From the NCBI GenBank assembly GCA_951406725.2, contig OX597817.1:86304001-86368000 (forward strand): 64,000 nucleotides of DNA, given 5' to 3'. Shown here in pieces: positions 7,996 through 53,379 of the stretch. A program made the position numbers and the translations under genes. The notes under the pieces were generated by a model. That model was not told where the DNA came from. It worked only from the letters and a program-made list of their open reading frames with translations, and did no database searches. Numbering within the stretch: position 1 is the stretch's first letter; every line of letters starts with the position of its first letter. Source of the stretch: Octopus vulgaris (lineage: Eukaryota).

Positions 7996-8018
7996 TAATT
8001 TTATTTTTCTATTTTTAG
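7996..8018 (+). promoter_or_regulatory. 3' splice acceptor ending an intron in the 5'UTR of the Egl-related gene
   Basis: Polypyrimidine tract ttttatttttctatttttAG (AG at 8017-8018), 58 nt upstream of the ATG. It implies upstream non-coding exon(s), which I did not locate. Confidence 0.65.
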
Positions 8019-8076
8019 GGATTCTTTTCAAGACACTTATCTTGATTCCTCATTTGGCTCTTACCAACCTAAAATA

Positions 8077-9918
8077 ATGGCGGAGGATCCAGGTCACAAA
8101 GCTATGTTATATTTCCTTGAGGTGTTGATGAACCACAGCCCTTCACCACTCAGTATTAGCCAGTTGGCTGGTCGCTTTGGCAGTCGAAATTTTACATCTG
8201 AAATGCGGCATGCTGCAGGTGGCAATGAGGCTGGGTTAAAAAAATTCCTGCTTAAATATCCTTCTCTTTTCACTGTAAATGGTAATCTTGTGTGTTTAAC
8301 AGATGGTACTTGTTGGAGTAGTTCAGTAAATAACAATGTTCGTGATAGTAGTCCAGCATCATCTTCCTCAAGTTTCAGTCTTCCTGAAGTATCCATTGAA
8401 ACAGAAGCCGTTCAATATTTTCGTAGCAAATTTCTTAAAAAGGGCGAAAAATGGATGGCTACCAAAAGTCTAGCTGGTCATCTGTCTCAGGCTTCTGCAG
8501 AAATCCGTGAGTGTGTTGGTCCACAGAATGAATTTGAAGACTGGTTGCATAAACATCCTTTAATTTTTGAAGTGAAAGGGGATATTGTTTGTCTTAAGGA
8601 CAATATGGCTTGTAGTCCCTTAAAGTCAGAATCAGACCAGACTGATGATGATGGTAGACAGTTTGCAGGGGACCCTGGTATGCTTTCTATGCCATTGACA
8701 CCTAAATTAAAAAATAGACCTCGCAGCTTAAATATAATGGATGCCAAGCCATTGAAGTCACCTGGCATATTGAGTTCCAAGTCTGGGCCTATGACAATGA
8801 CTGCTAATGAATACAAAGCTGTTATGTTTCTGAAAAATATTATTGAGAAGAAAGGTGACATAAAGCTTAACAGTCTTAGTGGCCATTTTAGTCAAGCACC
8901 AGAGAGTTTGAGGAATACAATTGGATGGAGTAAAACTGAATTGGAAAAATTCTTGAGGCAGCACTCAAACATCTTTGCAATATCTGAAGATGAGACGGTG
9001 TCAGTGATTAAAAATACTCGATTAAATGTTGTAATCACTGGCAGTAAACCAACATGTCCAAATAAACCAACGATTACCAATAGAAAAGGGAAGATATATC
9101 ATGTTGCTAAACTTTGGGGTATCATTGATTTAGGAAGGCATGAACATGTTTTTATTGACCGTTGCATCTTTGGCCGCCATATAGATGATTTGAATAGACT
9201 TTTGTCTGTTGGTGAAACTGTTTGCTTTGATGCTATCCCAGCTCCAAAGGGCAGTCGAGCTAGGTGGCGTGCCACTCGAGTATGGAAGGAAAATGAATCT
9301 ATTGAGGATATGATTGACCGTCTTGCTGAAAGACTCCATTTGCCTTTGGATGGAAGATCCAGAGATCCTGGCACTCCTCTCGGCAACATAGACGATGAAC
9401 TGAAGAAAGTAATTCCTGACTTAAACGACAACAACATCCTCAATTCACCAGTCACTGTGGGAGGTTTGAGGTATGCTTTCTTTGATGCAGCGCCTAGTGG
9501 TGCCGGTGTAGTGCCAGTTTGGAACTTCAAATCTGTGGAATTAGAAGGAATGAAAGACATAGATGATCTTGATCTAAGTGATGAGGCTGGTGGTGATGCA
9601 CAGAATCCTTCTATGGTAGCTGAACGATATTACATGAATCAGTCTGTTCTTGGCGACAGTCCTCGTGATTCCAGATGCCATAATGGTGAAAAAGAACCTT
9701 TCATGAATGGACTGAGCAGCAACACCAATACAATACTTGAGAATGGAGATATGTTAAATGGGCAATCTGCTGATAAATACGGTGCTGATGTTGACTTGAG
9801 CAACGAACAAACTAATGGTAACAATAATAATTGCTGTACAAAGCAAATTGATGCATCGTGCCAGACAATTGTCACTGGGGATATTCTTGCAACACAATTC
9901 TTTCATGAAGGTATTTAG
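8077..9918 (+). CDS. Egalitarian-related RNA-binding protein: 3 Egl-type winged-helix repeats + cold-shock/OB-like domain + C-terminal LC8-binding-like motif (possibly LIN-66-like)
   Basis: Clean 613-aa ORF in a good start context (aaaataATGG). Repeat 1 (AMLYFLEVLM..FGSRNFTSEMRHAAGGNEAGLKKFLLKYPSLF) and repeat 2 (EAVQYFRSK..KSLAGHLSQAS) closely resemble the Drosophila Egl N-terminus as I recall it. aa 336-405 (GKIYHVAKLWGIIDLGRHEHVFID..GETVCFDA..WRATRVW) has a CSD/OB-fold pattern. It ends IDASCQTIVTGDILATQFF. No DEDD exonuclease motifs are visible. Confidence 0.88.
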   Translation: MAEDPGHKAMLYFLEVLMNHSPSPLSISQLAGRFGSRNFTSEMRHAAGGNEAGLKKFLLKYPSLFTVNGNLVCLTDGTCWSSSVNNNVRDSSPASSSSSFSLPEVSIETEAVQYFRSKFLKKGEKWMATKSLAGHLSQASAEIRECVGPQNEFEDWLHKHPLIFEVKGDIVCLKDNMACSPLKSESDQTDDDGRQFAGDPGMLSMPLTPKLKNRPRSLNIMDAKPLKSPGILSSKSGPMTMTANEYKAVMFLKNIIEKKGDIKLNSLSGHFSQAPESLRNTIGWSKTELEKFLRQHSNIFAISEDETVSVIKNTRLNVVITGSKPTCPNKPTITNRKGKIYHVAKLWGIIDLGRHEHVFIDRCIFGRHIDDLNRLLSVGETVCFDAIPAPKGSRARWRATRVWKENESIEDMIDRLAERLHLPLDGRSRDPGTPLGNIDDELKKVIPDLNDNNILNSPVTVGGLRYAFFDAAPSGAGVVPVWNFKSVELEGMKDIDDLDLSDEAGGDAQNPSMVAERYYMNQSVLGDSPRDSRCHNGEKEPFMNGLSSNTNTILENGDMLNGQSADKYGADVDLSNEQTNGNNNNCCTKQIDASCQTIVTGDILATQFFHEGI

Positions 9919-52045: not shown

Positions 52046-52782
52046 ATTCCCACACTGTTGAAATATATTGTGATGAATTTCATGTTTCAAAACGTTGCTT
52101 GCTTTTTACTCGGCCTGATATATCAAAGAGCCCTTAGGAGCTAAGAAATTATAAAGATTTATAAATAATTCATTGTTCAATTATGGCCTTTAATGGGTTA
52201 ATTTGAAATAACATCAAAATATTTCTTGATGTTTTAAGACTGACTTGTGTTTTATGTCTTTATGTGTAACACCTTGTGAAAGTTGAAGCTTGAATTCTAA
52301 TAAACTCAAACTTTTATGAAATAAAGACATGTTAAAGACTATGTATAGAAGATTGTATGGAGATGCAGCATGAATGAATAATTAGAGTTTACTTTGCAAT
52401 TACAATGTCGCAGATTTGATCCTATTGCATGGTATCTTGGGCAAGTGTCTCTTACCATTGCCTCATGTTGACCCACACTTTATGAGTGAAAATTGGGTTG
52501 ATAGAAAATGAGTGTTGAGTGAATTGTACCTGTAATTTGCAAAGTACAGCTGTTTCACACTATTATACTATCACACTAGTACAGCTGCATCACACTATTA
52601 CACTGAGTATATTAAGGATACACATATCCATGGAATGCTCTGCTCATGTTAATTCAGTTGATTGAACTACTGAAACCCCATCAGAGATCCATTTATTTAG
52701 TAAAAGAATCTATAAACCATTGTTAATTGATATTTCAAAATTGACTAGAAATAGCCTGACATATTTTGTTTACTATTTTCAG

Positions 52783-53379
52783 CCTAATTTTCAGGTTTCC
52801 AAATTTCATTCAAGTCTTAAACCCTACCAGGCTGAGAAACTATCTATACCAAAAGATGAATTTACTAATCAACCATTGTATGATCCTACAAAAGGCAAAC
52901 TTATTTATAGTGGACCTTTGACCAAGACAATAAAAGCAGTTAAGTTGTTTTCTATATCCACCAGTCTTTTAGGTCTGGGTATGCAACCAGTCATTTTGTA
53001 TAACTCTGTAGACACATCATTGCCATTGAAGGCTGCTGTAAGTGTTTTCTTTGCATTTTTTATAGTTGTGACACCATTGTTAATACATATGGTAAGTAAG
53101 AAGTATGTGACTGATGTTTACTTTGAGGACACTTCCAATGTCTTTACTGCTGCTACTTTCAACCTTTTTAGCATGCGTAAGCAACTGACTTTTAAAGCTG
53201 AAGATGTGAATGCTCCAACTCTTACTGGTCCTTTCACAAGTGTGATAATTAAAGGAAAACCCCTTTTTCTGGATCCAAAATTCTTTCTTGATAAACAATC
53301 TTATATTCACTTGATGGGTTTTGACAAACCACTGGACTTGGAGTTGCCAAAATCTATTAAGCAGCAAACTGAAAAATAA
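52783..53379 (+). CDS. TMEM70: TMEM70 exon 2 (mitochondrial inner-membrane ATP synthase assembly factor)
   Basis: Motifs GKLIYSGPLTKTIKAVKLFSISTS, two hydrophobic TM segments, TPLLIHMVSKKYV, and KGKPLFLDPKFF..YIHLMGFDKP are typical of TMEM70. Acceptor tattttcAG at 52781-52782. Predicted product is about 225 aa with exon 1. Confidence 0.9.
   Translation, partial: PNFQVSKFHSSLKPYQAEKLSIPKDEFTNQPLYDPTKGKLIYSGPLTKTIKAVKLFSISTSLLGLGMQPVILYNSVDTSLPLKAAVSVFFAFFIVVTPLLIHMVSKKYVTDVYFEDTSNVFTAATFNLFSMRKQLTFKAEDVNAPTLTGPFTSVIIKGKPLFLDPKFFLDKQSYIHLMGFDKPLDLELPKSIKQQTEK

Follow-up and report, generated by a model that had tools for sequence, protein, structure and literature searches.

The window analysed here, a 64,000-nucleotide stretch of Octopus vulgaris DNA (assembly GCA_951406725.2, contig OX597817.1, positions 86,304,001 to 86,368,000 of the forward strand), contains an Egalitarian-like gene in which three Egl winged-helix domains (ED1-ED3) are followed by a predicted OB fold, a long disordered linker and an Egl-type C-terminal motif. 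An earlier note, made from the letters of the DNA alone, had described an intact frame of 613 residues, and the open reading frame does run without interruption from ATG to stop at 8077-9918 (+), in a host genome that is AT-rich and 2.8 Gb in size. The in-frame, stop-free stretch immediately 5' of the ATG is either 5' untranslated region (UTR) or a 20-residue N-terminal extension that continues an upstream exon. Given the splice acceptor predicted there and a database model (P0002) of 633 residues, which is longer by 20 residues at the N-terminus, the coding start may sit in the upstream exon.

Domains of the predicted protein

The three N-terminal repeats are mutually similar, as first proposed, with pairwise local scores of 68, 56 and 90 where shuffling gave means of 20-22, and none of 1000 shuffles matched the real score for any pair. 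The assignment of repeats 1 and 2 as Egl-type winged helices is upheld and extends to repeat 3, since Pfam WH_Egal (PF23713) matches all three (E 2e-68, three stretches, each above the cut-off). The sole significant sequence match in the PDB is Drosophila Egl (residues 8-181, E 6e-21), which is also the best PDB match of repeat 3 folded alone (E 1e-3 to 2e-2; most rows superpose 71-75 columns with a root-mean-square deviation of 1.5-2.7 Å). Conservation was counted in the best 120 of 214 homologs matched among 8000 scored candidates. ED1 is identical to arthropod Egl ED1 at 31-32 of 73 positions and is predicted, by analogy with the fly protein, to contact the BicD coiled coil CC3 and the lower RNA helix. 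In ED2, Ser137 and Gln138 are kept in all 119 sequences having a residue there, and the corresponding pair of ED3 is mostly retained (Ser272 in 92/120, Gln273 in 99/119). Compared with the minor-groove readers of fly Egl, the ED2 pair is thus invariant, whereas the ED1 pair His31/Cys35 is substituted by Ser28 (113/114) and Gly32 (112/113). The connector that follows ED3 reaches, over residues 313-323, a mean column identity of 0.88, the highest of all stretches measured.

The beta-rich domain after the connector, which had been suspected to be OB- or cold-shock-like, is predicted to form a five-stranded barrel matching S1 and cold-shock domain (CSD) OB folds. Residues 336-405 are conserved throughout the 120 homologs (mean conservation 0.79 for the OB fold and 0.78 for ED1), and ten residues, all basic, aromatic or acidic, are invariant in 120/120: H342, K345, W347, H355, H357, F359, D361, R394, W397 and W403. 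In our alignment to the RNP1/RNP2 consensus, W347 and F359 presumably fill two aromatic sites, the beta-1 Trp position is taken by His342 and the remaining positions are Ile or Asp. The predicted fold resembles the S1 and cold-shock OB domains of Rrp4, PNPase, ribosomal S1, DBC1 (S1-like), Unr/CSDE1, YBX1 and Lin28, from which the octopus domain differs by its family-specific motif set and its fusion to EDs; in isolation it has no match to Pfam PF00313, PF00575 or PF14444, DUF7930 being its only hit (E 0.044). The relative P0215 shows an S1-like match (E 2.9e-5) that lies below the cut-off.

The linker between residues 410 and 590 is as acidic and Asn-rich as had been described (11.6% Asp, 11% Asn) and mostly has pLDDT values below 50. 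It encloses two conserved motifs that had been overlooked. The first (residues 470-484; D470 in 116/116, S474 in 116/117, G477 in 114/117 and W482 in 111/116) was seen in lophotrochozoan-type members only and is absent from flatworm and syndermatan ones. The proposed LC8-type tail is likewise borne out by alignment: residues 587-611 align with fly Egl 957-981, weakly when taken alone (2.3 bits) and at 14.4 bits with a profile, Gln596 and Thr597 are kept in 120/120, and the pattern recurs both among OB-type proteins (130 of 134) and among those with an exonuclease (9 of 11). Absence of the exonuclease domain, also noted at the outset, was confirmed by a Pfam search of the protein and by Egl Exo and XAD profiles, which found no match in the six frames of the window.

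Table 1. Features of the octopus Egalitarian-like gene (window coordinates).
Feature	Position	Strand	Evidence
Spiralian Egalitarian-like protein, coding frame	8077..9918	+	Homologs full-length, 34-94% identity, most 96-100% query coverage
Splice acceptor AG (8017-8018) and in-frame stop-free stretch 5' of ATG	8017..8076	+	Sequence, predicted
ED1 (aa 6-76)	8092..8304	+	ED1-specific FG..FT..MR...GG signature common with ecdysozoan Egl
ED2 (aa 106-175)	8392..8601	+	Ser137-Gln138, counterpart of fly Egl base-reading Ser127-Gln128 (alignment)
ED3 (aa 241-312)	8797..9012	+	Third Egl domain, well conserved in OB-type family
ED3-to-OB connector strand (aa 313-325)	9013..9051	+	Predicted structure, conservation
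Predicted S1/cold-shock-type OB fold (aa ~331-406)	9067..9294	+	Structure prediction, residue conservation
Short motif in disordered linker (aa 470-484)	9484..9528	+	Conservation
Second, weaker linker motif (aa 512-520)	9610..9636	+	E516 115/117, M520 110/119
Egl-type C-terminal motif (aa 590-611)	9844..9909	+	Predicted LC8/Dlc anchor Gln596-Thr597

An ordinary neighbour gene is represented elsewhere in the window by a TMEM70-family coding exon (~52780-53379, +; Pfam PF06979, E 3.6e-21), whose open frame starts at 52666.

Family membership and proposed mechanism

The octopus gene is a member of a reported spiralian Egalitarian-like family. Miliard et al. (2025; PMC12579938) described planarian Egal-1, -2 and -3, which have no clear exonuclease and combine three modules at the N-terminus with a spiralian central region of 67-71 residues and a Dlc motif, listed homologs from Crassostrea, Lingula and Owenia, and derived the spiralian and exonuclease types from one ancestral gene. 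RNA interference (RNAi) against egal-1 and drugs acting on microtubules alike led to ectopic notum at posterior wounds, and perinuclear foci of Egal-1 vanished under colchicine (PMC12579938). The octopus protein has the three folded N-terminal modules, the Dlc-type tail and no exonuclease, and its residues 336-405 form a central region of the reported size, with the same motif visible in planarian Egal-1 (Table S3 of that paper); the Lingula and Owenia entries correspond to our homologs P0099 and P0069, judging from equal lengths and matching visible N-termini. Since the family was already published, the octopus gene is no surprise, and the earlier note's term "uncharacterised" falls away with the layout and the planarian RNAi phenotype in print. 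That note had itself granted that an already well-characterised family would undo its proposal; this applies in part, the layout being known, although the available text of PMC12579938 holds no biochemical characterisation. The authors termed the central region a "unique fold" in the review file, and the available main text mentions neither "shock", "OB fold", "LIN-66" nor "Octopus". A literature search from which subscription journals were mostly absent found just two papers, both unrelated, that combine any three of the subjects egalitarian, winged helix, cold shock, OB fold and lophotrochozoa. What appears to be new here is that the central domain is assigned, by prediction, to the S1/CSD-type OB folds.

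In Drosophila Egl, each ED1 contacts a single face of BicD CC3, ED1 (His31, Cys35) and ED2 (Ser127, Gln128) of different chains read RNA minor grooves, the pocket is completed by ExoHD-XAD with ED3 being dispensable, and ED1 and ED2 alone, without ExoHD-XAD, weakly hold one stem-loop (PMC13186709), while Dlc dimerises Egl via the C-terminal motif (10.1101/2021.05.12.443861). As ED1 and ED2 bind RNA in Egl and the key ED2 residues are kept in octopus, about half of the Egl pocket would remain. It is suggested, with a probability of roughly 0.6, that the gene is the spiralian ortholog of Egalitarian and a predicted RNA-cargo adaptor for BicD-dynein. A dynein-mRNA adaptor role, as proposed in the earlier note, is plausible in the light of the fly structures and the conserved residues. 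The accompanying notion of retained motor-coupling ends with a different RNA module is overstated, since ED1 and ED2 themselves bind RNA in Egl and the ED2 Ser-Gln pair is kept. The host genome also encodes BicD, whose C-terminal region is intact and shows 100% identity to a cluster bearing the name Octopus bimaculoides. Most of the BicD coding sequence (C11:34151066-34153318, +) lies in one 750-codon open frame, which resembles the single long coding exon of the Egalitarian-like gene.

By analogy with the fly complex, LC8 would bind the QT tail and dimerise two chains, each ED1 would settle against a single face of the C-terminal coiled coil of BicD, and helix 2 (Ser137/Gln138) would let ED1 and ED2 of different chains read a bent stem-loop in its minor groove. 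The OB fold, kept beside ED3 by the conserved strand, may stand in for the missing ExoHD-XAD in conferring affinity, by holding unpaired bases of the loop or the flanks, and RNA-stabilised dimers would activate BicD for minus-end transport. Several points weigh against this adaptor model: the XAD is important for RNA affinity in flies (PMC13186709), the fly Egl central module alone binds K10 RNA (10.1101/2025.08.03.668247), and the literature demonstrates no partner or RNA for spiralian members.

Alternatively, the protein could belong to cytoplasmic RNP granules like LIN-66, Unr or Lin28, its OB fold and EDs binding mRNA to control translation or stability, with LC8 serving dimerisation only and motor coupling lost or minor. 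LC8 is generally known to dimerise non-motor proteins too, the structural matches of the OB fold include Unr, YBX and Lin28 CSDs, and the octopus protein and several homologs carry precomputed labels for the Lin-66 winged helix (Pfam PF26288), with a LIN-66-like Atlas cluster ranked second (score 0.85); both are weak leads for the link to LIN-66 that the earlier note had suggested. The C. elegans protein shares with that of octopus a cold-shock-like domain, winged-helix-type domains under the PF26288 label and long disordered regions, and cytoplasmic puncta or foci have been reported for LIN-66 and, near nuclei, for planarian Egal-1 (PMC12579938). However, the LIN-66 CSD (residues 101-170) opens the structured region (101-370) and keeps the beta-1 Trp, whereas the octopus OB fold comes after all three EDs and has His there. 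LIN-66 had no homologs found beyond nematodes (PMC11184513; 10.64898/2026.07.07.737059), which carry a separate EGAL-1 too. It is plausible that both proteins draw on a common set of modules; orthology with LIN-66 is unlikely. The BicD-binding ED1 is also as conserved as the OB fold and keeps its Egl-specific signature, and microtubule drugs mimic the planarian phenotype, so that a granule protein uncoupled from the motor is an unlikely explanation.

Gene lineage and distribution

The earlier note had confined the protein to molluscs, but the family spans Spiralia. Named species among the 120 homologs listed comprise bivalves, gastropods, one chiton, annelids, nemerteans and one brachiopod. 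When 1.84 billion representatives were searched with a profile, 488 matched, of which 150 are listed, and in the 30 looked up among these, flatworms, acanthocephalans and Seison have the ED-ED-ED-OB layout, most with the tail. In a sample of 281 family proteins, which were selected for resembling the spiralian profile and from which the OB profile was also built, 197 have an OB fold, 44 an exonuclease and none both. Eight of the 11 ED-plus-exonuclease clusters looked up are named, and all eight are arthropod or nematode.

The host genome holds just one gene above the WH_Egal cut-off (23/23 candidates scored). A scorpion Egl query returned, at a strict threshold, the same gene and one weak exonuclease exon, the Egl exonuclease query only the locus of that exon, which is EXD1-like, the OB query only the gene itself and the XAD query no match; since these searches work exon by exon, absence of a canonical egl is not proven. 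The EXD1-like exonuclease (two exons, C7 ~100458900-100460350, +) comes closest of all host sequences matched to the exonuclease domain of Egl, and the 50 kb around it contain no ED, OB, XAD or tail match. A weak lone ED-like fragment (C10:72646674-72646745, -; E 0.16 across the genome, 2e-4 when a broad profile is run over 40 kb), beside which no companion exons were seen, is either chance or a piece of another winged-helix gene.

A tree of ED1 and ED2 (49 proteins, 148 columns, four flatworm paralogs with degenerate ED1 excluded) separated 30 OB-type proteins (89/92) from 16 exonuclease-type proteins (93/89), with three multi-domain proteins apart from both (100/99); it is unrooted, carries a long-branch warning, and the supports of the OB and exonuclease sides are unstarred. 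The ED1 signature is common to the OB-type and exonuclease-type groups only. The simplest reading of these sequences would be a single Egl lineage with one central module in Spiralia and another in Ecdysozoa, and the earlier description of a distinct paralog gives way to probable orthology with a swapped central module. By parsimony, the OB form may be the older one, because the ecdysozoan outgroup Priapulus bears OBs, albeit on a long branch.

In the protein of Priapulus caudatus (XP_014669428; P0264/P0187), three EDs and four OBs precede the tail, so that OB-bearing relatives exist outside Spiralia. A protostome ancestor may accordingly have had both an ED-OB-tail and an ED-exonuclease-tail gene, the canonical egl being unseen in spiralians or reciprocally lost, and multi-ED proteins from unnamed sources, one with an exonuclease, together with the non-exhaustive genome searches, leave some room for such true paralogy. 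Yet the Priapulus type and unnamed multi-ED/multi-OB proteins, which share EDs, OBs and the tail motif with the octopus protein, lack the ED1 signature, carry several OB copies and sit on a long branch that belongs to neither Egl group. The host genome searches turned up no canonical egl, the 11 clusters looked up include no named spiralian, and Miliard et al. likewise favour a single ancestral gene (PMC12579938); two ancestral genes are thus rather improbable. A search for further relatives of the Priapulus ED3-OB4-tail protein found none.

The separate set formed by P0264/P0187, P0192, P0169, P0215 and P0227 combines several EDs with 2-6 OB copies, and in some of these proteins the tail motif of Egl comes last. 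P0158, P0168, P0190, P0201, P0236 and P0255 have 5-13 tandem Egl domains, P0255 being the one with five EDs plus an exonuclease. A Lytechinus protein (Table S3 of PMC12579938, assessed by eye) shows an apparent OB-like, then a winged-helix-like region and then an exonuclease; if this pattern is real, the same kit occurs in deuterostomes as well.

Significance and comparison with known systems

That the protein serves BicD-dynein as an adaptor for cargo consisting of proteins or organelles, its OB fold being a protein-interaction module like some S1-like domains, is highly improbable: the S1-like domain of DBC1, taken from an entry whose title refers to the DBC1/SIRT1 interaction, is the top non-Egl Foldseek match, and no RNA target is named in the literature, but the ED2 Ser-Gln residues that read RNA bases in Egl are invariant, invariant basic and aromatic residues line OB strands 1-3, and nearly all matches of the OB region are nucleic-acid-binding S1 or CSD domains.

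For an RNA adaptor orthologous to Egalitarian, mapping the OB assignment onto the 2026 Egl-BicD-RNA structures yields a concrete model, half of the Egl pocket kept and half replaced, which singles out residues S137/Q138, W347, F359 and Q596/T597. Snail embryos partition many mRNAs via aggregates associated with microtubules or microtubule-organising centres (MTOCs), and a mud-snail 3' UTR element is sufficient for centrosomal localisation (10.64898/2026.10.05.756875; mRNA partitioning in Ilyanassa also in PMC8595238). The available text of that preprint mentions neither egal, BicD nor dynein. An octopus-type Egalitarian would be a reasonable candidate adaptor for this sorting. As a wider and distinctly speculative scenario, the OB form could be ancestral in protostomes, with arthropods and nematodes having swapped in an EXD1-like exonuclease, and the spiralian form could be the missing BicD-dynein adaptor that reads both the stem (ED1/ED2, perhaps ED3) and single-stranded bases (OB) of 3' UTR signals, carrying mRNAs to centrosomes or MTOCs, to be partitioned asymmetrically during spiral cleavage, and to muscle-fibre ends in planarian polarity. 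The octopus gene itself offers a useful fold assignment and an evolutionary hint within a known family.

Among known systems, planarians have three egal paralogs and the octopus genome one that was found. The closest functional comparison is with Drosophila Egalitarian and C. elegans EGAL-1 (PDB 9RVY; Singh et al. 2026, PMC13186709), which have the same ED1-ED2-ED3 order, the same ED1 signature, the Ser-Gln pair that reads bases in ED2 and the QT tail at the C-terminus. In contrast to the Drosophila protein, the octopus protein has neither ExoHD nor XAD and carries an OB fold after ED3 instead, the fly residues His31/Cys35 of ED1 are Ser/Gly, and ED3, although flies can dispense with it and it has diverged there, is conserved in the octopus family, where Ser-Gln is mostly retained.
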